DNA of 64,000 nt, taken from Escherichia coli. Lineage in GTDB: Bacteria > Pseudomonadota > Gammaproteobacteria > Enterobacterales > Enterobacteriaceae. Below the pieces are notes generated by a model, which was not told where the DNA came from, searched no databases, and saw only the letters and a list, made by a program, of their open reading frames with translations. Shown piece after piece: positions 2,595-47,929 of this stretch. Position 1 is the stretch's first letter; each line of letters starts with the position of its first letter. Location: NCBI RefSeq assembly GCF_041248615.1, contig NZ_CP158426.1; one strand, 5' to 3'. The translations under genes and the position numbers were made by a program.

Positions 2595-4025
2595 TTATTT
2601 GCTATTCGCTTTACGCGCCAGCAGCGGGAATATCAGCCCTAATCCTACCAGCACAAACGGCGTTGCAACATTCAGCGCCAACTGGAATGTCCACTCTGCG
2701 GTGAAGGCTTCCATTTTCGGGAAAATACCAGTCAGGCAGGCAAAAGCGGTAAAGGCAAAACACCAAATTCCGACGGTCATTGCCAGCGGCTTATTACGAA
2801 TAAAGACATATTCTGGTTTATATTTCTGCGCCAGGCGAACAACTGCAATAAATGCAACAAATACCCATAAATAACGCAGCGGCATCACTACCGAGTTAAG
2901 ATTCAACAGCCATTTATAGAGATTGTTCATATCACCAATGCCGAGAGTCGGTAGCATTATCAGGATCGCCACCAGCACCAGGGTCAGAAAATAGCCATTA
3001 ACGGGCGTACCAGAAGCGTTGGTACGACATAAACTGGCTGGAATATATTTGCTGTCAGCATCGCCTAATAACACTTTAAGCGGCGCATCAATCGAGAATA
3101 CCAGCGCAGCTACTTGTCCCAGGGTATTCGCAATGGCATAAATCACCATTAAAGTATTACCCATGTTGTAATACTCGCCCAGCTTCTGAAAGGCGTAATA
3201 CTGACCGTTAGTCATTAAGTCATCCGGGATATTACGCGAGTCAAACATCATCCCCATCGCCAGTGAGCCCAGAATGGCACAAACCGCAACCATCACCGCC
3301 AGGCATAACATCCCTTTTGGAAATTCTTTTCCTGGGTTGCGCGTTTGATTAACGTAAGGAGAAATCTTCTCTGCTCCGCCAACCGCGAAAACCAGCATTG
3401 AAATAGTGGTAATGTAGGTAAAGTCGATATGAGGAATGAACGTTTCCCAGGTAATGTTTGTGGTCGCAATATGCACTTCAGTAATTGCAGGCGCGGTTAC
3501 CGCCATCGCCACATACAGGAGCGACATAACAAACATCGCAATCCCTGCCACAGAACCGACGATTTTCAGCGATTTCATACCGCGTGAAGCAACCCACATA
3601 AAGAAGATAAACAGCACCAGCGTTAACCCCTGTAACGCTACGACTGAATATTCTTTGATTAACGAACCGTCGCCTTTCATCGCCCAACCGAGCGCAATCA
3701 GTATTGCCTGGGGTTTTTGTGCCAGATAGGGAATATGCACTACCCAGTAGGTCCACGCGGCGAGGTAAGCCAGTCCGGGTCCCATCGTGTGTTTAATCCA
3801 GGTACTGACCCCGCCCTTCCCATCTTTGAAGGTCGAGCCTAACTGACCAACAATTAGCGCATAAGGTGTGAAATAGAGCGCAAAGATAAACACCCATGAA
3901 AAAACAACCACCAGCCCCTGGTTGGCGTAGTTATTAACAACGTTGCCAAAACCCCAGACAGTGATAAAAGACATCAGCGCAATGTTGTACCATCGCAGCT
4001 GTTTTTCCTGAACATTCCCAGCCAT
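2595..4025 (-). CDS. ycaM: APC-family inner-membrane transporter
   Basis: 476 aa from MAGNVQEKQLRWYN; about 12 hydrophobic segments; the longer track ORF (to 4217) has an unsupported N-terminal extension. Confidence 0.85.
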   Translation of the reverse strand: MAGNVQEKQLRWYNIALMSFITVWGFGNVVNNYANQGLVVVFSWVFIFALYFTPYALIVGQLGSTFKDGKGGVSTWIKHTMGPGLAYLAAWTYWVVHIPYLAQKPQAILIALGWAMKGDGSLIKEYSVVALQGLTLVLFIFFMWVASRGMKSLKIVGSVAGIAMFVMSLLYVAMAVTAPAITEVHIATTNITWETFIPHIDFTYITTISMLVFAVGGAEKISPYVNQTRNPGKEFPKGMLCLAVMVAVCAILGSLAMGMMFDSRNIPDDLMTNGQYYAFQKLGEYYNMGNTLMVIYAIANTLGQVAALVFSIDAPLKVLLGDADSKYIPASLCRTNASGTPVNGYFLTLVLVAILIMLPTLGIGDMNNLYKWLLNLNSVVMPLRYLWVFVAFIAVVRLAQKYKPEYVFIRNKPLAMTVGIWCFAFTAFACLTGIFPKMEAFTAEWTFQLALNVATPFVLVGLGLIFPLLARKANSK

Positions 4026-7851: not shown

Positions 7852-10296
7852 TTACACCTTTTCAACCTGAACAAGGTTTGTATGTGACGGATTCCCCTTA
7901 GCGAGAGGAGACGGACGTTGAGTGGTCAGTACGTTGATACAACCGCCCTTATCGACACGTTTTGCATCCGGGTCATACCAGGCACCTTCACCCAGTGCGA
8001 CCACACCCGGCATCATTCGTGGCGTCACTTTCGCCTCAATATGAACCTCACCACGATCGTTAAAGATCCTGACTTTATCGCCGTTGTTGATACCGCGTTT
8101 TTGTGCATCAAGCGGGTTGATCCACATTTCCTGACGGCAAGCTGCTTTCAGCACATCAACGTTGCCGTAAGTTGAGTGAACGCGAGATTTGTAGTGGAAG
8201 CCAGTAAGCTGCAGCGGATATTGTTTGTTCAGCGGATCCTGATAACTTTCAAAGCCCGGCGTATAGATCGGCAGTGGATCGATCACATCGCCTTCTGGCA
8301 ATTCCCAGGTCGCGGCAATGTCAGCCAGCGCCTGCGAATAAATCTCAATTTTACCCGATGGCGTGGTCAGTGGATTTGCCTGAGGATCTTCACGGAAAGC
8401 TTTATAAGCAACGTGGTGCCCTTGTGGGTCGCGCTTTTTAAAGATCCCCTGCTTGCGGAACTCTTCAAACGTTGGCAGTTCAGGAATCGCTTCCCGCGAC
8501 TGGGCATACAGATGCCGCATCCACTCTTCCTGTGTACGGCCTTCAGTAAACTGTTGCTCAACGCCAAGACGTTTTGCCAGTTCGCTGGTCATTTCATAGA
8601 TGGTCTTACATTCAAAGCGCGGTTTAATCACCTGATCGTTGAAAATCACGTAAGACATATTCCCGCAGGATGCATCCAGTGCAAAGTCCATCTGTTCGGA
8701 AGCGGTGCAGTCAGGCAGCAGGATGTCAGCATATTTCGCTGATGAGGTCATGTGGCAGTCGATAACCACAATCAGCTCGCACTTCTTATCATCCTGAAGG
8801 ATTTCATGGGTACGGTTGATTTCAGAATGCTGGTTAATCAGGCAGTTACCGGCATAGTTCCAGATCATTTTGATCGGCACATCCAGCTTATCTTTCCCGC
8901 GCACACCATCACGCAGCGCTGTCATTTCCGGGCCACGTTCAATGGCATCGGTCCACATAAACATCGAAATGCTGGTCTGGATCGGGTTTTCGAGGGTCGG
9001 CATACGGACAAACGGTAAGCTGTATGAACCTTCACGCGCGCCGCTGTTCCCCCCGTTAATACCAACGTTACCGGTCAGAATCGCCAGCATCGAGATAGCA
9101 CGGGTTGCGATTTCACCGTTAGCGTGACGCTGCGGGCCCCATCCCTGGCTGATAAACGCCGGTTTGGTACTGCCGATTTCACGAGCCAGTTTGATGATTT
9201 TGTCTGCCGGAACACCGGTGATTTGCGAGGCCCATTCCGGCGTTTTAGCCACGCCATCTGGCCCTTCACCCAGAATATAAGCTTTATAGTGACCATTTTT
9301 CGGCGCACTGGCTGGCAGTGTTTTCTCGTCGTAGCCAACGCAATATTTATCGAGGAATGCCTGATCCACCAGGTTTTCGGTGATCATGACATACGCCAGA
9401 CCGTTAACCAGTGCGGCATCTGTTCCCGGACGAATGGGGATCCACTCATCTTCGCGCCCGGCTCCGGTGTCGGTATAGCGCGGATCGATGATGATCATGC
9501 GAGCATTAGATTTCTGACGCGCCTGTTCAAGATAGTAAGTCACCCCACCGCCACTCATTCGCGTTTCGCCAGGGTTATTACCAAACAGCACTACCAGTTT
9601 ACTGTTTTCGATATCCGACGGGCTGTTACCATCTGCCCAGCCGCCGTAGGTATAGTTCAAACCTTCCGCAATTTGCGCGGAAGAGTAGTCACCGTAATGG
9701 TTCAGATAACCGCCGCAGCAGTTCATCAGGCGAGCGACCAGGGTATTTCCCGGCGGCCAGGAGCGGGTCATGGTGCCGCCCAGCGTACCGGTGCCATAGT
9801 TCAGATAGATAGACTCGTTGCCGTACTCTTTGATCAGGCGCTGCATATTGGTCGCGATGATGTCGTAGGCTTCTTCCCAGCTAATGCGCTCGAATTTGCC
9901 TTCACCGCGCGCCCCGACTCGTTTCATCGGATATTTCAGGCGGTCCGGATTGTAGACACGGCGACGCATGGAACGCCCACGCAGACAGGCGCGCACCTGG
10001 TGCAGGCCGTCATAGTTGTCATCGCCGGTATTATCCGTTTCAACATATTTAATTTCACCGTCCACAACGTGCATACGTAGCGGGCAGCGACTACCACAGT
10101 TAACTGTACAGGCGCTCCAGATAACCTTTTCGTCTGATTTTGTTGGAATGGCGCTATCGACAGCGTGCGCAATCCGACTAAAAGGTAATGTTAATGCGCT
10201 GCTGGCCATTGCCAGGCCGCCGATCGCTGTCGTTTTTACCAAACCACGGCGACTCACCTCAGCAGCCAATACCGCATCAGGGATTTTCGTTTTCAT
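7852..10296 (-). CDS. dmsA: DMSO reductase catalytic molybdopterin subunit
   Basis: 814 aa; N-terminal Tat signal (SRRGLVKTTAIGGLAMA); molybdopterin oxidoreductase architecture. Confidence 0.95.
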   Translation of the reverse strand: MKTKIPDAVLAAEVSRRGLVKTTAIGGLAMASSALTLPFSRIAHAVDSAIPTKSDEKVIWSACTVNCGSRCPLRMHVVDGEIKYVETDNTGDDNYDGLHQVRACLRGRSMRRRVYNPDRLKYPMKRVGARGEGKFERISWEEAYDIIATNMQRLIKEYGNESIYLNYGTGTLGGTMTRSWPPGNTLVARLMNCCGGYLNHYGDYSSAQIAEGLNYTYGGWADGNSPSDIENSKLVVLFGNNPGETRMSGGGVTYYLEQARQKSNARMIIIDPRYTDTGAGREDEWIPIRPGTDAALVNGLAYVMITENLVDQAFLDKYCVGYDEKTLPASAPKNGHYKAYILGEGPDGVAKTPEWASQITGVPADKIIKLAREIGSTKPAFISQGWGPQRHANGEIATRAISMLAILTGNVGINGGNSGAREGSYSLPFVRMPTLENPIQTSISMFMWTDAIERGPEMTALRDGVRGKDKLDVPIKMIWNYAGNCLINQHSEINRTHEILQDDKKCELIVVIDCHMTSSAKYADILLPDCTASEQMDFALDASCGNMSYVIFNDQVIKPRFECKTIYEMTSELAKRLGVEQQFTEGRTQEEWMRHLYAQSREAIPELPTFEEFRKQGIFKKRDPQGHHVAYKAFREDPQANPLTTPSGKIEIYSQALADIAATWELPEGDVIDPLPIYTPGFESYQDPLNKQYPLQLTGFHYKSRVHSTYGNVDVLKAACRQEMWINPLDAQKRGINNGDKVRIFNDRGEVHIEAKVTPRMMPGVVALGEGAWYDPDAKRVDKGGCINVLTTQRPSPLAKGNPSHTNLVQVEKV

Positions 10297-10592: not shown

Positions 10593-11588
10593 TTACTGGT
10601 CGATGGACAGTTTATGGACACTTTCAGCCAGCGGATTAAAGCTGATCGCATCCTGTAAAAAGTCCGGTGAAAAATGCGCATACGTCATCGTTTGCTGAAT
10701 CGTGGCGTGACCCAGGATCCTCTGCAACGTGACGATGTTCCCGCCGTTCATCATGAAATGCGTGGCGAACGTGTGCCGCATGACATGCGTGGCCTGCCCT
10801 TTGGGTAAGTCGGGCTTCACCTCCTGAAGGATCTCCCTGAAACTGAGATAATCAACCTGATATAACAGGCCGGTCCGGCGGGTTTTAATTAACGGCACAA
10901 CGGAATCAGCTACAGGAACCGAGCGCGATTTCCCGTTCTTTGTGTTAAAGAACGTCACCCTGTTACCCACGATGTGTTCCCCGCGAAGCGTTGACGCCTC
11001 TTTCCATCTGGCCCCGGTCGAAAGGCACAGAATGGCAATGCGTCGTGCATCACCCTCAAGCCGTTTCAGAAGGCGATCAATCTCGTCATCTGAAAGAAAG
11101 GCCATTTCTGTATTCTGAACCTTGAGTTTACGTATTCCGCGCACAGGGTTTTCGTTATGATAAACCTCCGCGTCAATTAACAACGAAAACATCGCAGATA
11201 AGGCGCACAGGTCGCGATTGATACTGGACGGCATCAGTCCCGCCTGCAACTTATCCGAGCGATACTCAATCACGAATTTTCGTGTCATCTGGCTGGCGCG
11301 CGGGTCCCCCATTTCACGTATCACCTTCTCCAGTCTGGTTCTGTAGGTATCACCATATGCCTGATTACGACCATCAAGCATCCACCACACCTCAATCAGT
11401 TCTGATAACCGCCGTTGATCGGCGGGCCTTGCCTGCCACGGGTTATTGTGGAAATTCTGAAGAACGTATCTTTCGAATTCCTGCGCCTTTGATTTCAGGG
11501 TGAAAATCTTACGAATCCGCCTTCCTCCCGCCCCCTGAGGCCTTACATCAACCTGATAACGTCCGTCTTTGAGTTGCTTAATCGACAT
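10593..11588 (-). CDS. int: P2-type tyrosine integrase
   Basis: 331 aa from ATG with SD GGAGGTG; N-terminus MSIKQLKDGRYQVDVRP and C-terminal HxLRHxFAT...Y catalytic region; resemblance to P2 Int is from memory. Confidence 0.9.
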   Translation of the reverse strand: MSIKQLKDGRYQVDVRPQGAGGRRIRKIFTLKSKAQEFERYVLQNFHNNPWQARPADQRRLSELIEVWWMLDGRNQAYGDTYRTRLEKVIREMGDPRASQMTRKFVIEYRSDKLQAGLMPSSINRDLCALSAMFSLLIDAEVYHNENPVRGIRKLKVQNTEMAFLSDDEIDRLLKRLEGDARRIAILCLSTGARWKEASTLRGEHIVGNRVTFFNTKNGKSRSVPVADSVVPLIKTRRTGLLYQVDYLSFREILQEVKPDLPKGQATHVMRHTFATHFMMNGGNIVTLQRILGHATIQQTMTYAHFSPDFLQDAISFNPLAESVHKLSIDQ

Positions 11589-11657
11589 GATCAGCACCTC
11601 CGACGGATAAACCTGTTAACCCCTGCTTACTGAACGCCGCCCGTTCAATATACAGCG

Positions 11658-11999
11658 TCAGCCAGCATTGCGGCCTGATTGGGGTGATTTTTGGGTATTG
11701 CGGGTTGAAACCTGATCGTCCTCCGACTGCGTGGAGCCATCAAGAGAGAGAGCCGGGGCGATCTGACCGGCAACAGGTAGCGTCTTATCTTTGATTAGCC
11801 AGAACATATATTTTTCAAACCGATCCACTTGAAGGACGGCCTCAACAATCTTTGCTCTGGCGATCTTTTGCCCTGACTCATAATTCCTGACAGTTGCCAG
11901 AGATAACCCTGTAATATCAGCAAATTGCTTTTGAGTTAGCCCTTCCGTCTTGCGTATCAAACGCAACTTTTTCGCATAGTCTATTGACAAGATACTCAT
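11658..11999 (-). CDS. P2 C-type immunity repressor (HTH)
   Basis: 113 aa; HTH near N-terminus; C-terminal GQIAPAL motif recalled from P2 C; divergent from cox-like gene. Confidence 0.8.
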   Translation of the reverse strand: MSILSIDYAKKLRLIRKTEGLTQKQFADITGLSLATVRNYESGQKIARAKIVEAVLQVDRFEKYMFWLIKDKTLPVAGQIAPALSLDGSTQSEDDQVSTRNTQKSPQSGRNAG

Positions 12000-12048
12000 T
12001 TGGGGATTAATCTCCTACAAAAGATAACCGTACGATTATCTTTACAAG

Positions 12049-12068
12049 TCATCAAAAATCATCAAAAG
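12049..12068. promoter_or_regulatory. candidate repressor operator, two adjacent 10-bp direct repeats TCATCAAAA(A/G)
   Basis: direct repeats in the C/cox-like divergent promoter region. Confidence 0.4.
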
Positions 12069-12102
12069 GCGCAACAAGCGCACCAATGCAAGAGGATAAC
12101 AA

Positions 12103-12624
12103 ATGCGGGAGATTATTGCCGACAAAGAGTTATCTGGCGCTCAACCGGTTCAGGATGATGGCGCGGACAATGAATTCATTGAAGCTGCCAACGACAACGA
12201 ACACCTGGAAACCAAAACCAGACCGTCCTACAAAAAGGGCGCAACCCTACGACTGGACGGCCCAGTCGCAGGACTTGTGTCACTGGAAAAAGGGGCTGCC
12301 TATCTGGGGGTAACAAAATCTGCGCTACGCGCCGCCATTCAGCGCGGGCAGATGCCGGGTCACAAAACGCGCTCAAATCCCGAAGATGAAAAGTCAGACG
12401 GTACATGGTGGTTTAACGCCAAAGCCTGGGACGAACTAGCCGACGAACTACTGGAGTGCGAACCGCCAGAGTGGCACAACTGGAAAAGCTACTGGACGTA
12501 CGACCGCAAGAAAAGAAAGTTTTCACCGGCAAACAAGGAGGACTGCCAGACCGTTAAAGGTAAGCAGGTTTACTCCCCCAGAGTTTCAAAACTGGAGCAA
12601 CTCAAAAACAACCAGCCCGGCTAA
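12103..12624 (+). CDS. Cox/excisionase-like DNA-binding protein (early operon first gene)
   Basis: 173-aa ORF with SD GAGGAT; divergent from repressor. Confidence 0.55.
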   Translation: MREIIADKELSGAQPVQDDGADNEFIEAANDNEHLETKTRPSYKKGATLRLDGPVAGLVSLEKGAAYLGVTKSALRAAIQRGQMPGHKTRSNPEDEKSDGTWWFNAKAWDELADELLECEPPEWHNWKSYWTYDRKKRKFSPANKEDCQTVKGKQVYSPRVSKLEQLKNNQPG

Positions 12625-12632
12625 ACACGAAA

Positions 12633-12839
12633 ATGACCAGCAATATCATCAATGCCGTTTTGAACATTATATTCCTGGAATTAGGCGTAGTAGTGATTTA
12701 TCTGCTTGGCAAGCTAACAGGACAAAAAGAACGTTTTATTGTCCTCAACGTTCATTACGTCGCAGCTTATTCTAAAGGGCTTTTTCCAATAGTTGTTGGC
12801 GCGGGACTTACAGCGTTTGTCATCTGGCTCATCAGGTAG
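12633..12839 (+). CDS. small 2-TM membrane protein (hypothetical)
   Basis: 68 aa, two hydrophobic helices; AT-rich with rare codons; weak RBS. Confidence 0.35.
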   Translation: MTSNIINAVLNIIFLELGVVVIYLLGKLTGQKERFIVLNVHYVAAYSKGLFPIVVGAGLTAFVIWLIR

Positions 12840-13121
12840 AGGCACACAACGTAATCATTCGTAGCTATATTTCCGCAATAGTATTCAAGTAAAGGAAGAC
12901 AACAACATGAAACCAAGACAAAGATTAACCTCCAGAAGTAGTGACGCATTGCACTTTAAAGCAAAAGACATAATAGCCACAACAAAGGTAGGAGCATAAG
13001 TCTATATACACTTTCAGAATTTCTATCTGGAGAGAACATTAAAAACGGAAGAGGAAGCCAATGAGTATTTGTTATTCATGAAAGATTGCATAGAAGGAAA
13101 AATAAGCGCAGGAGATAAATA

Positions 13122-13430
13122 ATGCGAAAACATTATTCACAGCCACATTTCCGCAACAGTGCACCACGCAGCAATAACCGCTGGAGCCTGCGCGAAACAC
13201 ACGCAACGCCGGGCGGTCATGCTGTAAAACAGACTGGTCAACACACCTGGCTGATTGAGCAGGCCGGACTCGTGATCCACAGATGCCACCGCAATCCGTT
13301 TACCGGAAACCGCATTTTTGCACTGAGCAGCGGCGACAATCAGTTCGGACAGGATTTCACACTGCACGAAGCCTTGCGAACTGCCGACCGCTTAATCGAG
13401 GGGCGCAGCTTTCAGCATACCGACTACTAA
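13122..13430 (+). CDS. hypothetical early protein
   Basis: 102-aa ORF with SD AGGAG upstream. Confidence 0.45.
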   Translation: MRKHYSQPHFRNSAPRSNNRWSLRETHATPGGHAVKQTGQHTWLIEQAGLVIHRCHRNPFTGNRIFALSSGDNQFGQDFTLHEALRTADRLIEGRSFQHTDY

Positions 13431-13468
13431 GGCAAAAGGAGTCTTAATAAGACAGAAGAGGCAGCAAG

Positions 13469-13711
13469 ATGAAAAGAGCCTATAAAGAACTCATTAACGA
13501 CGCGCTTCAGAATTACCATTACGGACTTACAAGCCGTGGCACTAACGGTGACGCTGTTTCACTTGCAGCACTGACTACAGCAATCAAGGGCCTGACCTGT
13601 TGCGCCTTTGGTTCCGGAGATAATGAAGCTCTGACGGAATTACAGGCCATTAATAAAGACCTGTCTGAAGGAAACGTAATAACCCCCTTTGTAATTCAGG
13701 AGGAAGCATGA
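13469..13711 (+). CDS. hypothetical early protein
   Basis: 80-aa ORF with SD; translationally coupled (ATGA) to next small ORF. Confidence 0.5.
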   Translation: MKRAYKELINDALQNYHYGLTSRGTNGDAVSLAALTTAIKGLTCCAFGSGDNEALTELQAINKDLSEGNVITPFVIQEEA

Positions 13712-13833
13712 GCGTATTTATGTCATGGTTAATTCTTATCCTTGCCATTATTTGCGCTGTGGGGATTATGCGGGTAATTAACAGCATTAACACCATTGAA
13801 TCGTTATTTACTGGCGATAAGCGCCGTAAATAA
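13708..13833 (+). CDS. 41-aa hydrophobic peptide (single TM)
   Basis: strong SD AGGAGG 6 nt upstream of ATG; MSVFMSWLILILAIICAVGIMRVINSINTIESLFTGDKRRK; below track length cutoff. Confidence 0.45.
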   Translation: MSVFMSWLILILAIICAVGIMRVINSINTIESLFTGDKRRK

Positions 13834-13913
13834 ACAGGCGTTTAACACCAGAAACAACCAGAAACATCCGCTCACGCGGAGGGGTTGACCCGCTCAAAAA
13901 GGAGAAATCAGGA

Positions 13914-14207
13914 ATGCTTAATAATAAAAAAAACCGAATCATTGATAACAGTGAACAGGTCAACAAAATAATCGAAGGCACAAACAAATTAATTAAGAAA
14001 AAAAACAAACTAAGCCGTGAATTAATGGAACATCCGGAAGAAATATTATTAGCCATGATGCACCAGACAGAAGCGATAGCCATCGCCCTTGCCGTGCAGG
14101 CGCTTTCTGAGTTCCGGGAAGAAAACATCAGGCTGGCTCAGGAGCTGAAAAACCTCAGACGTCAGCTTCAGAGCACTGAGGCTGGCACGTCATCACGAAT
14201 ACACTGA
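13914..14207 (+). CDS. hypothetical coiled-coil protein (AT-rich)
   Basis: 97 aa; SD AAGGAG; markedly AT-rich 5' half. Confidence 0.5.
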   Translation: MLNNKKNRIIDNSEQVNKIIEGTNKLIKKKNKLSRELMEHPEEILLAMMHQTEAIAIALAVQALSEFREENIRLAQELKNLRRQLQSTEAGTSSRIH

Positions 14208-14217
14208 GGGCCACACC

Positions 14218-14427
14218 ATGACTGCAATTCTGAGAAGACGCAATAAAACGCTTTTTACCGATACATCCGGGATGGAATACGAAGTGGAAAGCAGTGTCAT
14301 CGCCACCACCACCCGATGCCCGGCAGGTGACGAACTGATTTACGTCCACCTGACGGACGGGTCACAGATAACCGTCCTGACAGAGTCATGGCGCGAACTC
14401 GAGATAATAAGCGAGGTAAGAACATGA
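14218..14427 (+). CDS. hypothetical early protein
   Basis: 69-aa ORF with SD GAGGG. Confidence 0.45.
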   Translation: MTAILRRRNKTLFTDTSGMEYEVESSVIATTTRCPAGDELIYVHLTDGSQITVLTESWRELEIISEVRT

Positions 14428-14636
14428 GCAGCAAACACGATACCAACGCACGCAGACCAGGCAAAGAGGCGCGTCACCATATCGCCGTAATGCGCAACCT
14501 GCTTATGAGTGAAATCGACGATTTTGTGGCAGGCCTGGGGCAACCGGGCGAACCAGCAACACCAGGCCAGATACACAGGGAATTACGCCGCCGCGTGGAA
14601 AACGTCGTGGATTACGTCATAAACCCGAACGACTGA
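14424..14636 (+). CDS. hypothetical early protein
   Basis: 70 aa from ATG overlapping previous stop (ATGA); SD GAGGT. Confidence 0.45.
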   Translation: MSSKHDTNARRPGKEARHHIAVMRNLLMSEIDDFVAGLGQPGEPATPGQIHRELRRRVENVVDYVINPND

Positions 14637-14675
14637 CGGGAACATGGCGAGCGTCAGATGACACACGCAGGGCAC

Positions 14676-15158
14676 TTATCGGGAAAAACCGATCGTAATG
14701 GCAGCCATCATCTTTTCAGCGAAAGAGAGAGATTCACGATGACTGATATTCAGAGACATACAGGCTTTGTTGTACGCCACATTTTCCATGCATTCCAGGA
14801 CAGGAGAGTCATGCATCTCAAGCTCTGGAAGGCGTGCCAGCAGAGCTTCCGTACTGAGGAGGGCGCTTTTGGTAATCAACTCATTGTAGCGATGGGCATG
14901 CTCACTCGCCGCCTGCGCACGTTGCCCGAAACGACATATGAAATTACAGGCTCCGAGAACCACCACCACTGCCCCAAGCACCCAGCCGAAATGCCAGCCG
15001 GCTACGATGAACGCACCCGCCGCAAGGATCAAAATGTTGATGATCGCATCAAGGCGACGATTGAATACCGCCGCGATGCGCTCCAGCCAGTAGCTGTACC
15101 AGAGACGGAACATGACCTCATCCCGTTCTCTCGATTTTTTACGTTGGTTGTTTTGCAT
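14676..15158 (-). CDS. 2-TM membrane protein, opposite strand to early operon (candidate exclusion/abortive-infection protein)
   Basis: 160 aa; SD GAGGGA; two TM helices then soluble domain; host-like codon usage, unlike the overlapping plus-strand ORF. Confidence 0.6.
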   Translation of the reverse strand: MQNNQRKKSRERDEVMFRLWYSYWLERIAAVFNRRLDAIINILILAAGAFIVAGWHFGWVLGAVVVVLGACNFICRFGQRAQAASEHAHRYNELITKSALLSTEALLARLPELEMHDSPVLECMENVAYNKACMSLNISHRESLSFAEKMMAAITIGFSR

Positions 15159-15392
15159 GGTGTTTTATCCCTCATCGTCATCGCTCTGCCCCTAATCAGC
15201 GCAGAGTGCAGGGTAACCTGGCTCGTGGAATTTTTGCAGCCAGACATCTTTACCCCCGGGCGTGTTGAACAAAGTGTCCGCCAGATCCACTGAACGGCGG
15301 ATTCATCAATGCTAACACGCCCTTCTTTTCCGGTTGAAGGCGAAAAAACCGGACCATTACCCCGACACAAAACAGAACAACGGAGAACAACT

Positions 15393-15947
15393 ATGCCCGC
15401 ACTTAAACCTATGGGTGTATCAGGTGTACCACCGAAGCATGTCAGAGCCTGGACACAACAGGAAGATGCTCTACTGGTCGGTTTATACCCCTCCCACACC
15501 GTACCAGAACTGACAAAACACTTTCAGAGAACCGGGCCAGCAATACGAAGCCGCATCCGTCTTTTGCTCTCTCAGGGGGTTATCCACACCAAACAACCCC
15601 CCCTGAATACAAAAGAACTCAACACGCTCATCAGGAATCGCCACACAAAAACCATCCGGGAACTCGCGAATGAACTGGGGCGCTCGACATCCACGGTGGG
15701 ACTGAACCTGAGAAAAAGAGGGTACCGGTTCAGGAAATACGGGGAACTCCACCACAGAGCCAGATACAGCGATCACCTGGTGGAGTTGGTAACTGAACTG
15801 CGCGATGAACAGGGGATGACATTCAGCGAAATCAGAAAGTACATCCGGGACATGGCCGGGATATCCCTTAAAAGATGGGTCCTCGCCCGGCTTTACGCAC
15901 GATATACCGCCGCTGACACCGTGCTTTGCGAACTGCTACCGGACTGA
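15393..15947 (+). CDS. HTH/Myb-like DNA-binding protein
   Basis: 184 aa from ATG with SD GGAG; W-x2-EDALLVGLY Myb/SANT-like segment; divergent from the membrane-protein gene. Confidence 0.55.
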   Translation: MPALKPMGVSGVPPKHVRAWTQQEDALLVGLYPSHTVPELTKHFQRTGPAIRSRIRLLLSQGVIHTKQPPLNTKELNTLIRNRHTKTIRELANELGRSTSTVGLNLRKRGYRFRKYGELHHRARYSDHLVELVTELRDEQGMTFSEIRKYIRDMAGISLKRWVLARLYARYTAADTVLCELLPD

Positions 15948-16174
15948 GTAACCACTATGCACACACAAAAAAACCGCTTGCCATGCCGCAATCAGTCAGG
16001 TTACATTTCCGCTGCACCTCATAAAACGGGTGCCGGGATTGCAACCCCCGCTGACAACTACAGCGCACAACCGCGCCAGCGGTTTTTTTGTGCGTACCGT
16101 ATCGCCACGTCTTTTTCGCGCCAGAATTATGGCGGGGCGTATGGGGCCGACTTCGGTCGGGCCGGTTTCTGTAG

Positions 16175-16242
16175 TTGCCGGTGGTTGCAACCCTGTACGT
16201 CTCGCCACCCAGAATTGCAACCTCTGGATGGTGAGTTTTCAA
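16175..16242. promoter_or_regulatory. three phased TTGCAAC(C) boxes; a fourth copy at 16029-16036
   Basis: TTGCAA palindromic cores at 16175, 16205, 16236 (30-31 bp apart), upstream of ORF 16268. Confidence 0.35.
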
Positions 16243-16267
16243 AACTTGCAACTACAGAGGCCACACC

Positions 16268-16492
16268 ATGGCAAACCGCAAACAACAGCGCGCATACGCT
16301 GCGCGTCGTCACATCCAGACTGAAATCAACCGCAGACTTTTCCGCGCATTCCGCGTCGCGCATATCATGCACATCAATATGCTGCATGAGCGCAGCCACG
16401 CACTGTCAAACATGTATTCCGCCGCTGTATTCAGCTACCTGGCGGATGACCTGCGCGAGCTGCAGGACCTCATTAACCAGCACCACCACTAA
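16268..16492 (+). CDS. small basic protein (hypothetical)
   Basis: 74 aa; SD AGAGG; basic N-terminus. Confidence 0.45.
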   Translation: MANRKQQRAYAARRHIQTEINRRLFRAFRVAHIMHINMLHERSHALSNMYSAAVFSYLADDLRELQDLINQHHH

Positions 16493-16560
16493 TCAACATC
16501 CCGGAGCCATCCCGCCCCCGTACGCGGGAGGCTTCCGCACGTCCGTTTCCGGAGGTTCTC

Positions 16561-16974
16561 ATGAAGAGCGTTAAGGGACTTTCAGATATTCAGGATTTTT
16601 TTAACTGGATGTGGGCGGTGGATCCACGCCTCGCTTCCCGTCTCAATGACCTGCACGACTATTACCGCCGCGCCTGTAAACAGGCAGCCCGCAGCGCTGC
16701 CACATACGGGGATTTTTCCTTCACCGTTGACGACCGTTACCGCGTGGATGTCAGAGACCAGAACCACAGCCTGGAGCTGGGCCTGTTCCACATCAACGGG
16801 TGCGACAGCAGCGTTATCAGCTGGTCATCGTCAGAAATGGTGCTCGTTCTGGAAATGACCACCCACAGCGTGGTCGTGAAAGGGATTAAAACAGCAGAAG
16901 ACTTTATCGCTGAATACCAGCGCCTTCTTGTGCTGTACCGGGCTGCATTTCAGAAGGCAACAGCAGGGGAGTAA
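16561..16974 (+). CDS. hypothetical protein upstream of gpA
   Basis: 137 aa; SD GGAGG; 5 bp before gpA. Confidence 0.6.
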   Translation: MKSVKGLSDIQDFFNWMWAVDPRLASRLNDLHDYYRRACKQAARSAATYGDFSFTVDDRYRVDVRDQNHSLELGLFHINGCDSSVISWSSSEMVLVLEMTTHSVVVKGIKTAEDFIAEYQRLLVLYRAAFQKATAGE

Positions 16975-16979
16975 GCGGA

Positions 16980-19490
16980 ATGAGCCATCACCACACGCAC
17001 CTGGCGTACCCGTGGAACGCCCCGCTGCCGGTTATTGATCCTGAGACATTCGGCAGAGCATTACCGCAGAAGCCAACCGCATTACAACGGGCAATCCGTG
17101 ACTACCTCACCGAAGACATTCGCACTGAGGCCCGGCTGGATGAAGAAACCGTGGCCTTCCTGACAACCACGGACAAAGGTAAGCAAATTAATTCACACCT
17201 TCACCGGGACGAAGAGCGGCAGATAAGGCTGGATAAGCTGGCACGACACAGACGCGAAAATCCGCCAACGGCGGTATCGGAGGCGATAGCCGAACTTCGC
17301 ACCCTGCCCTCGTTTCTTGCCAGTGTGTTGATCCGTGATCTGGCACGACTGAACCGGAAACAGCAAAGTGCCCGCAGTGAAGGTGTAAAAAACAACAGCG
17401 CATACGTGGCCGATAATTTCGTTCGCCGTGGACTGCGTGCGCGCCTGAAACGTATTGAAAGGGTTAACGACCGCTTTGCAACGCCGGCATTCAAAACCAC
17501 CGTCGTGCGCCATCGCCTTGAAGAACTGCTCACACTGCCGCAACTCACCCGTGACGAAATCCAGCGCATCGCCACACTGACAGCCCAGGCATTCGCCGCA
17601 GAATTTGAACGCATATGTGATGAAGTTCTTGAACGGACAGGCAAGGATAATGACAGCCCGGTTATCTGGCTGCTGGCCTACCAGAAGGTGGCACGCACAG
17701 CCTTAATTCTGGGCATGGTCCCGCCATACTGGCCGGAACTCGAAATCAGGCACAACCGACGCACACCGCCGGACCCTGAACGGGTTCCGGGTGCGGTACT
17801 GCGCATCACCTGCGCGACCTGGTGGAACAACCAGTTACGCCACGTCGCCGATCTCTGGCGGGAGGAGTTACTGCGCGCCGCCGGCAGAGTGTCACGTAAA
17901 CAATCCCCCTATATCAGCCATGAGTCACTACTGGAGTTCCGCGAGAAGCGCCAGCGCACCTGTGACTTTCTCAAAAGCTGGGATATTGAAAACGAAGACG
18001 GCGAGCGCCTGAGTCTGGAGGACGTGTACTGGGCTGGCCTGGGTAATCCACGCAACCGCCGCAATGAAATGATGGTCTGCGTCAGAGGGATGGAGATGGT
18101 GGCCGAATTACGGGCTGACGTCGCATTCTTCATCACAGTAACCACCCCTTCCCGCTTTCACAGCGTGAACGAGAACGGCAGCCTGAACCCGAAATACAAC
18201 GGTGCCACAGTACGAGATGCCAGTGATTATCTGGTTTACGACTTCTTCGCAGCCGTAAGAAAAAAAATAAAAAAAGAGGGGCTGGGCTGGTACGGCGTGC
18301 GAACCGCTGAGCCACACCATGACGGCACGCCACACTGGCATATGCTGGTATTCACTTCCCCGGAGAACGCAGAGCGCATCATCGAAATTATGCGCGAAGC
18401 AGCAATTAAATCAGATCGCCACGAACTGGGGGACGATATTTCACCGCGCTTTAAATGCGAGAAGATAGACCCGGAAAAAGGCACACCGGCAAGCTATATC
18501 GCAACCTATATCGGTAAGAACCTGGACGCCAGCGCTTTCCACAACAATGATCCGAAAACCGGAAAACCTTACGTTGATGAGGAATCCGGGAAAACCATGG
18601 CGGAAACCGTGGAGAACGCCATTGCCTGGGCAAGCCTTCACCGCATCCGTCAGTTCCAGTTTTTCGGCATTCCGCCCCGCCAGGTATGGCGTGAACTCCG
18701 CCGCCTTGCAAGCCAGATGGAGCGCAACCCGGCATCACCGAAGCACCTCGATCATGACGATATTGACGCCATTATGGCTGCCGCAGATGTGGGATGTTTT
18801 GCCACCTACATCATGAAACAGGGTGGTGTGCTCATTCCGCGCAACCAGTATCTGGTCCGCACCGCATACGAAACCGCAGACGAAGCCAACGACTACGGTG
18901 AATTCCCTCAACGTATCTACGGAATCTGCGCCCCGTCGCTCGGAGAGCGGTACACCATATGCACCCATCCGGACGAGTGGAAACTGGTTAAAAAAGAAAC
19001 AACACCAGACAACCGCACGGGCGAGGGTTTTGACCTTCATGGCGACCCCGTCGCCCCTTGGACTCGTGGCAATAACTGTCCCCGGGATGAAAAAACAGAC
19101 AATCACGGACCAGAAAACAGGCAGGACCCCGGACGACTGACGCTTCCCGAAGAGAACCTGGAAAGCTGGCTGAATACGTTAAGCAGGGGCGATCGGAGAA
19201 AACTGCGTAATCAGATTAAAAATCAGCCGTCGGGCGCAAAAACCGGACAAAACGACACCACACCGGCATCTGACACCCCTGTAAGGGTGGGGATTGTCGT
19301 GCCTGCGGATACCGCGACGGACACGCAAATCGCCCGCGAACTTGATGCGCTGGGTGTGCAGTTGCCTGACGCGGCCATCATCTCCGTGCGTAACGGTGCC
19401 CGTGTGCGTCTGGATAACGGGGGAACAGCGTACTGGGATGAGTCAGCCCGTCACATCATCACAGAGCAGCCAGTGGAGGCGGGAGCATGA
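16980..19490 (+). CDS. rolling-circle replication initiator (P2 gpA-like)
   Basis: 836 aa; HUH-type motif HHDGTPHWHMLVF; size and position match P2 gene A. Confidence 0.9.
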   Translation: MSHHHTHLAYPWNAPLPVIDPETFGRALPQKPTALQRAIRDYLTEDIRTEARLDEETVAFLTTTDKGKQINSHLHRDEERQIRLDKLARHRRENPPTAVSEAIAELRTLPSFLASVLIRDLARLNRKQQSARSEGVKNNSAYVADNFVRRGLRARLKRIERVNDRFATPAFKTTVVRHRLEELLTLPQLTRDEIQRIATLTAQAFAAEFERICDEVLERTGKDNDSPVIWLLAYQKVARTALILGMVPPYWPELEIRHNRRTPPDPERVPGAVLRITCATWWNNQLRHVADLWREELLRAAGRVSRKQSPYISHESLLEFREKRQRTCDFLKSWDIENEDGERLSLEDVYWAGLGNPRNRRNEMMVCVRGMEMVAELRADVAFFITVTTPSRFHSVNENGSLNPKYNGATVRDASDYLVYDFFAAVRKKIKKEGLGWYGVRTAEPHHDGTPHWHMLVFTSPENAERIIEIMREAAIKSDRHELGDDISPRFKCEKIDPEKGTPASYIATYIGKNLDASAFHNNDPKTGKPYVDEESGKTMAETVENAIAWASLHRIRQFQFFGIPPRQVWRELRRLASQMERNPASPKHLDHDDIDAIMAAADVGCFATYIMKQGGVLIPRNQYLVRTAYETADEANDYGEFPQRIYGICAPSLGERYTICTHPDEWKLVKKETTPDNRTGEGFDLHGDPVAPWTRGNNCPRDEKTDNHGPENRQDPGRLTLPEENLESWLNTLSRGDRRKLRNQIKNQPSGAKTGQNDTTPASDTPVRVGIVVPADTATDTQIARELDALGVQLPDAAIISVRNGARVRLDNGGTAYWDESARHIITEQPVEAGA

Positions 19491-47688: not shown

Positions 47689-47922
47689 GTGGAAAGGCCC
47701 CGGAAAACATTTCTGTTTAACCGAGGCCCTAACCGCATTACCTTGACAAGTGAAAGGTTAGCGCCTCTCCGGAAAAGGAGCAAGTGCTATGTCGCAAAAA
47801 TCGCTTACGGCCATCACGTTCTGCGTGACGGCAATCCTCATCATCTGGATATTGCACGGTTCGCTGTGCGAAATACGGATGAGCTTCTGGGGAGCGGAGT
47901 TTGCGGCGTTCTTACAATGTAA
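47689..47922 (+). CDS. mok-like overlapping reading frame of hok locus 1
   Basis: 77-codon frame starting upstream of and overlapping hok, as in hok/mok/sok loci. Confidence 0.35.
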   Translation: MERPRKTFLFNRGPNRITLTSERLAPLRKRSKCYVAKIAYGHHVLRDGNPHHLDIARFAVRNTDELLGSGVCGVLTM

Positions 47923-47929
47923 GAAGTAA
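47789..47929 (+). CDS. hok: Hok/Gef-family type I toxin
   Basis: 46 aa MSQKSLTAITFCVTAILIIWILHGSLCEIRMSFWGAEFAAFLQCKK; SD AAGGAG; single TM plus conserved LCE and AAF motifs. Confidence 0.7.
   Translation: MSQKSLTAITFCVTAILIIWILHGSLCEIRMSFWGAEFAAFLQCKK

Follow-up and report, generated by a model that had tools for sequence, protein, structure and literature searches.

A small predicted membrane protein gene in the early region of P88-like Escherichia coli prophages

Introduction

Several small bacterial membrane regulators, including MgrB, AcrZ, MgtS, Blr and SidA of Caulobacter, are shorter than 50 amino acids, have one transmembrane (TM) helix and no catalytic potential, and act by binding a larger membrane protein. 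Phages also produce small proteins, early in infection or after induction, that alter host function, such as T4 Imm, Gp56 of the Bacillus phage SPO1, and Kil and CIII of lambda, Imm and Gp56 being membrane proteins. Membrane proteins of very small size readily escape notice, and phage-encoded ones with a known target are few. The bacterial single-pass regulators have been reviewed as a class (PMC12648545).

Here, we examine a small hydrophobic peptide encoded in a window of 64,000 nucleotides (the whole stretch of E. coli DNA that was analysed; contig NZ_CP158426.1 of assembly GCF_041248615.1). Its homologues include gp07 of phage P88 (YP_009113050.1, 37 aa), which is labelled "membrane protein" in the phage record, and WP_000021655.1, the copy in strain EDL933. 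Judging from sequence comparison, the 41-codon frame is a real gene, maintained by selection, for a predicted single-pass membrane protein, and the peptide is a member of the unnamed and uncharacterised family formed by P88 gp07 and its prophage copies. The prophage lineage is very common in E. coli and is found in major pathogenic clones (O157:H7 EDL933 and ST131).

Results

The reading frame and its overlap with the DUF4754 gene

The peptide gene occupies positions 13708-13833 on the plus strand, as the first-pass annotation had noted, and consists of 41 codons followed by a stop codon, which is included in this span (ATG at 13708-13710, TAA at 13831-13833); its translation is MSVFMSWLILILAIICAVGIMRVINSINTIESLFTGDKRRK (41 aa). 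Immediately upstream lies an 80-aa ORF (13469-13711, plus strand) encoding a DUF4754 protein (Pfam PF15946, E = 2e-10), which is predicted to be a three-helix bundle (AF2 pLDDT 92). The TGA of this ORF (13709-13711) overlaps the ATG of the peptide gene, forming the ATGA junction that had been described at first pass, and this overlap points to coupling of the peptide to DUF4754 by termination-reinitiation. A Shine-Dalgarno sequence, AGGAGG, is present at 13698-13703 (plus strand) within the last codons of the DUF4754 gene, also as described, although its spacer to the ATG is 4 nt (AAGC) instead of the 6 nt that had been given. This hexamer occurs 21 times in the window, eight times with an ATG 3-9 nt downstream, and the other clades carry weaker G-rich stretches in the same place (GAGGTGG, AGAGGG, AAGGGG and GGGGAA). 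Since 108 ORFs of at least 25 aa are found within 8 kb around the peptide gene, the length of an ORF is uninformative by itself. An antisense ORF of 48 aa (13650-13796, minus strand) was considered as well and rejected, because the antisense frames have their stops at different places in each clade.

The gene has been called independently in RefSeq, in the P88 record and in other phage records. RefSeq already lists the identical ORF as a hypothetical protein (WP_024211217.1), and both DUF4754 and the small gene are annotated in 58 of 60 E. coli records taken at even intervals from the match list. As RefSeq and the phage P88 record both annotate the peptide gene, the reading that it had been overlooked was rejected.

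A narrow yet abundant family

A profile built from nine members and run against 1.84 billion representative proteins gave 19 matches at E < 1e-3, all of which were small proteins of the P88 gp07 kind, or their fragments or frameshift products. The named sources of the peptide are Escherichia coli, E. albertii, E. fergusonii and Citrobacter, and those of DUF4754 additionally include Shigella and Salmonella. When 100,044 species-representative genomes were scanned with the DUF4754 profile and a single peptide pattern, a combination of limited sensitivity, only one locus was found, in E. albertii; a scan of viral contigs gave only three near-identical loci. Among 5426 complete E. coli genomes, the P88-type module is present in 1363, the window type in 26 and a third type in 18. 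The family is therefore narrow yet abundant, with relatives in about one in four complete E. coli genomes.

Searches of the peptide against Pfam, PHROG, NCBIfam and PADLOC returned nothing significant; the best match, phrog_5620 (E 0.4-1), recurs across peptide variants but stays far from significance. A PDB sequence search with the peptide gave nothing below E 4, and Rfam gave no family over 13400-14000. We found no mention of DUF4754 in the literature and nothing relevant in that on fil/dhr of coliphage 186, while the literature on Xuanwuvirus, P88 and CP-933T appears, in the portions available, to be unrelated to the peptide gene.

Selection on the peptide frame

A nucleotide BLAST search of the region against phage records gave no match, so that a protein-level search was needed. 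With tblastn, the peptide was matched at 54-56% identity over 41 aa (E 9e-10 to 4e-9) in phages P88, P884B11, 520873, Shae_phiSM and others. The homologues share 46-57% amino-acid identity, while their DNA is only 61-68% identical. We compared 14 loci (five phages, eight chromosomal or metagenomic contigs and E. albertii) together with O157:H7 EDL933, and all 14, as well as EDL933, keep the frame, its ATG and the overlapping stop and start (ATGA) shared with the DUF4754 gene. For between-clade pairs over the first 30 codons, dN/dS was 0.10-0.22 in the peptide frame, compared with 0.5-1.15 and 1.15-6.4 for the two remaining forward frames. The variable columns at codon positions 1, 2 and 3 numbered 22, 7 and 25, respectively (chi-square p = 0.006), the second position being the least variable (7 of 29 sites), as would be expected if hydrophobic NUN codons were retained. 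The peptide is also better conserved in sequence than its DUF4754 neighbour, with 54-56% identity between the window and P88-type phages as against 33-35% for DUF4754.

The conservation of frame, ATG and ATGA overlap, together with the clear synonymous excess, marks a real gene rather than a chance ORF. Conservation of the reading frame in related prophages had been named beforehand, in the first-pass annotation, as a check, and the frame is indeed kept under purifying selection, although the depth of this test is limited by the narrowness of the family. The copy in phage 503458, in which both the peptide gene and DUF4754 have indels, was uninformative for the comparison.

Location in a P88-like prophage

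The window is E. coli chromosome and, according to the annotation of an identical prophage, carries a P88-like prophage of the P2 family (Xuanwuvirus) between dmsA and serS. Of 5426 complete E. coli genomes, 25 contain window-type DNA at 99-100% identity and one more contains it at 95-99%; in one such genome, RefSeq annotates a P2-family prophage with portal, terminase, capsid, tail and lysis genes. The phage relatives are classified as Peduoviridae, genus Xuanwuvirus, type P88. In the ORF list, dmsA (7852-10296, minus strand) is followed, just beyond it, by a tyrosine integrase gene (10593-11597, minus strand), a C-type repressor gene (11658-11999, minus strand) and cox (12103-12624, plus strand), and a run of small rightward genes ends with a P2-type replication gene A (16980-19490, plus strand). 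The annotation of the identical prophage and the ORF list together give a rightward early region from cox to gene A (12103-19490, plus strand) with the peptide gene inside, which agrees with the prophage early location assigned to it at first pass. This early operon also holds other genes of unassigned function, namely DUF4761, DUF4754 and several hypotheticals.

Some neighbouring features were recorded in their own right. A 68-aa hydrophobic protein, apparently with two hydrophobic segments (PHROG 14475), is encoded directly after cox (12633-12839, plus strand), and a 160-aa hydrophobic ORF lies at 14676-15158 on the strand opposite to the early operon. Rfam matches above the gathering score were obtained for isrK (16014-16089, plus strand; 60.1 bits) and C4 antisense RNA (16125-16212, plus strand; 80.1 bits), which occupy an ORF-free gap just before the "derepression protein" gene (16268-16492); the pair looks like a P1/P4-type antisense-RNA immunity element within a P2-family prophage. 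Near the serS end is a Hok/Gef-family type I toxin gene of 46 aa (47789-47929, plus strand), which is so annotated in the identical genome. In E. coli F11, an IS5-family insertion splits the region matching 13469-14207 (NZ_CP184143.1 4281717-4283327), indicating that the early region is disrupted in some lysogens.

No terminator-like site was found on the plus strand from 12000 to 15400. In P2, the C repressor shuts the early promoter in lysogens, and by analogy the peptide is probably made only after infection or derepression. Downstream of the peptide gene, in the intergenic space 34 nt past its stop, lies a conserved stem-loop, TCCGC-N4-GCGGA (13867-13880); all 17 of 17 sequences carry it, a single time in each locus, between the peptide gene and the one that follows (also at 3090-3103 of locus L002, 6158-6171 of locus L011, and others). 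The tetraloop comes in seven versions and the stem shows one compensatory double change (TCCGT/ACGGA, in phage Shae_phiSM); the stem-loop is better conserved than either flanking gene. It was flagged as terminator-like on the minus strand, where it is followed by a T-rich run because an A-rich run precedes it. The candidates for its role are a leftward terminator, an mRNA-stabilising hairpin and a DNA site.

Predicted helix, tail and topology

With the Hessa and Kyte-Doolittle scales, a TM helix is predicted at codons 3-21 (VFMSWLILILAIICAVGIM; 13714-13770, plus strand), where the Hessa insertion energies sum to -3.8 kcal/mol and the Kyte-Doolittle values average 2.78. From hydropathy and alignment, codons 22-41 (13771-13830, plus strand) are predicted to form a cytoplasmic juxtamembrane helix, RVINSINTIESLF, and a basic tail, TGDKRRK. 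The window peptide has five Lys/Arg in the C-terminal flank and none in the N-terminal flank, so the single hydrophobic TM helix and basic C-terminus claimed at first pass stand as a prediction. Both the helix and the charge asymmetry were present in all six variants tested; in every clade, 2-5 Lys/Arg follow the helix and none precedes it. As all Lys/Arg lie C-terminal of the helix, the positive-inside rule predicts an N-out/C-in topology, and the two-residue N-terminus is probably outside.

Across 17 distinct sequences, M1, S6, W7 and L10 are invariant, and I11, A17, G19, I20, M21, R22, I24, I30 and F34 are nearly so. No charged or strongly polar stripe runs along the helix, and small residues recur at positions 13 (A/S13), 17 and 19 (A17, G19); helical periodicity of conservation, which would be a sign of a binding face, was not significant. 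The window type also has a variant within the helix, G19E, which 260 contigs carry. The stretch that follows the helix (R-I/V-I-x-x-I/V-K/N-x-I-E-S/A-L-F) shows moderate amphipathicity (shuffle p about 0.05), and AF2 modelled residues 1-35 as one helix.

The tail varies in length, giving forms of 30, 37, 41 or 45 aa. Three clades keep a tail of the form ...FTG(D/E)(K/E)(R/H)(R/H)K. In the P88 clade, the tail is cut short past residue 30-33 or gives way to another sequence, ending in ...RFFTGE (37 aa) or, where a T5 run is T4 instead, in ...RFSLANNRANKTTG (45 aa), and the 30-aa forms arise by premature stop. The T5/T4 switch lies near codon 33 (3020-3044 of locus L002 versus 3450-3498 of locus L004), and both forms are widespread, each with many sequence clusters. 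Because the tail is variable and unstable, residues 1 to about 33 are taken as the putative functional core.

Two other readings of the N-terminal segment were rejected. The lipobox consensus is [LVI][ASTVI][GAS]C with an invariant Cys; the A-I-I-C of the peptide is no lipobox, and relatives have M, F, S or Y in place of Cys16, which argues against a lipoprotein. A cleaved signal peptide, which would have a basic n-region, an A-x-A type cleavage site and an exportable mature part, was discarded because the helix is not preceded by any Lys/Arg and Arg22 stands directly after the possible A-V-G site.

Candidate functions of the peptide

Our leading candidate, to which as a whole we give slightly under an even chance, is that the peptide is a small bitopic inner-membrane modulator, acting early in the lytic cycle by binding a larger host membrane protein; on the narrower matter of a modulator rather than a pore former, we regard the balance as even. 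The rightward early transcript of the P88-like prophage would yield a 41-residue bitopic inner-membrane protein, whose translation would begin by termination-reinitiation at the ATGA, assisted in the window clade by the strong Shine-Dalgarno sequence. Residues 3-21 would cross the membrane, and the juxtamembrane helix (M/V-R-I-I-x-x-I-K-x-I-E-S-L-F) and the basic tail would be cytoplasmic. The peptide may then pack helix-to-helix with a larger host inner-membrane protein and alter the activity of the latter during early lytic growth, and the outcome could be host takeover or the exclusion of other phages. A uniformly apolar helix with a small-residue face (A/S13, A17, G19) would suit such packing, and the cytoplasmic helix may in addition serve as a docking site for the DUF4754 protein translated alongside it. 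A modulator is considered the best fit because of the apolar helix, the conserved interfacial residues on both of its sides, the conserved cytoplasmic helix and the early-operon position. Counting against this candidate are a fused-chain model with DUF4754 that lends docking no support and a mosaic locus (both described below), a tail that is dispensable or unstable, the G19E variant, and conservation without significant helical periodicity.

A markedly less probable explanation is that the peptide and the DUF4754 three-helix bundle form a complex, to which the peptide mainly contributes a membrane anchor or small subunit; the activity would reside in DUF4754 at the membrane, and the stop/start overlap would tie the production of both proteins together. 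Such a partnership is consistent with the adjacency of the two genes and their ATGA overlap in every locus, despite differing immunity regions and downstream genes, and with the same narrow host range of the two families; the cytoplasmic helix of the peptide and the low-confidence C-terminal tail of the DUF4754 model are possible docking surfaces. However, when DUF4754, a linker and the peptide were modelled as one fused chain by AF2 with a paired alignment, a design that gives no inter-chain error map, the pTM was only 0.50 and the peptide pLDDT 54-77, and DUF4754 has no informative fold relatives (no match at E < 0.1 in PDB and BFVD fold searches). Moreover, the partner is swapped in a mosaic locus, L012, whose DUF4754 is of the P88 type but whose peptide, hairpin and start of the downstream gene are of the type seen in L011 (5762-6126 in both L012 and L011). 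The pair is thus not strictly co-inherited, and the mosaic suggests recombination at or near the ATGA junction.

Also counting against an anchor-and-subunit complex, no natural in-frame fusions of DUF4754 and the peptide were found. The "DUF4754" entries of 103-116 aa (P0037-P0092; 3128-3331 of locus L017) are almost all frameshift products, which exit their own frame (several share one exit point, AFYADD) and continue over the peptide gene in the +2 frame. This +2 frame is open in the P88 clade and shows no purifying selection between clades. The single entry that rejoins the peptide frame, P0059, comes from one Logan assembly and requires two frameshifts. The entries of this length are probably sequencing errors or decayed copies.

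We think it rather unlikely that DUF4754 and the peptide form a dedicated two-gene early-lytic module in which the TM helix of the peptide seizes a specific host inner-membrane machine. The candidate targets in such a case, each proposed with the same reserve, would be the divisome, FtsH, the Sec/YidC insertion pathway or the phage DNA-entry route, with host arrest or phage exclusion as the result; if true, this reading would amount to a new family of phage host-takeover peptides.

Less probable still is a membrane-damaging toxin, type I-like or holin-like, by which the inner membrane would be depolarised or permeabilised, leading to host shut-off, abortive infection or an effect on lysis timing. 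Many small hydrophobic peptides of such a kind are toxic when over-produced. In its size, single hydrophobic helix and basic C-terminus, the peptide is similar to Hok, Ldr, TisB and DinQ-type toxins and to small holins (PMC12648545), but its gene has no locus of its own and is translationally coupled within an operon, and its helix lacks a polar or charged stripe. In a crude consensus scan, promoter-like matches were at chance level (5 found versus 3.6 expected), none being antisense over the peptide gene or positioned for an antisense RNA, and no Rfam family was present over 13400-14000. Furthermore, the peptide matched no toxin or holin family of Pfam, NCBIfam or PADLOC at E up to 1, and the prophage already has a lysis cassette in its late operon and a genuine Hok/Gef gene elsewhere. 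Of the two candidate roles raised at first pass, a toxin or a regulator of membrane proteins, the type I form of the former is unsupported, given a start that overlaps the upstream stop, no antisense signal and no family match in these crude scans. Identity as a phage holin was rejected, as the lysis genes of the identical prophage (lysozyme, LysC and those next to them) belong to its late region, some 10-11 kb from the peptide gene; the holin families of Pfam and PHROG gave no match to the peptide.

Finally, it is very improbable that the peptide is functionless, with translation alone mattering (by bringing ribosomes toward the hairpin or the downstream genes) or with the ORF being a recent accident, since the variation of the C-terminal tail by indels and premature stops, the conserved hairpin just downstream and the young, narrow family, which such a reading would accommodate, are set against residues 1-30 that are conserved at the amino-acid level (dN/dS 0.1-0.2, with S6, W7 and L10 invariant) and a stop-to-hairpin distance that ranges from 21 to 66 nt across loci and is ill-suited to a mechanism based on ribosome position.

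Discussion

On present evidence, the peptide is an ordinary hypothetical small membrane protein with a candidate function only, and the observation concerns a real but already annotated hypothetical gene, which is notable mainly for the commonness of its family in E. coli. A target, once found, would provide a role for a gene that some 1400 sequenced complete genomes carry and might expose a new route by which temperate phages manipulate the host envelope.

Compared with T4 Imm, SPO1 Gp56 and lambda Kil and CIII, the proposed modulator would be a functional analogue only, without homology. The peptide resembles type I toxins (Hok/Gef, Ldr, TisB, Ibs, ShoB and DinQ) in being a small hydrophobic single-helix peptide with a basic end, encoded in a prophage; unlike them, it has no transcription unit of its own, no antisense RNA partner was found for it, it is embedded in an operon, and it matches no toxin family. 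With MgrB, AcrZ, MgtS, Blr and SidA, the likeness lies in general features, with no sequence relationship, and the peptide differs from the MgrB-type regulators in being phage-encoded and in belonging to an early lytic operon. Its homologues are P88 gp07 and the Xuanwuvirus and prophage copies, including that of EDL933 (WP_000021655.1), at 54-56% identity. With P88 gp07 it shares the position after DUF4754, the ATGA overlap and the predicted helix, while the window peptide keeps a longer tail (...ESLFTGDKRRK) that the P88 clade does not. The sequence similarity, the position behind DUF4754 with the ATGA overlap between cox and gene A, and the N-terminal helix followed by C-terminal Lys/Arg all place the window peptide in the P88 gp07-like family.
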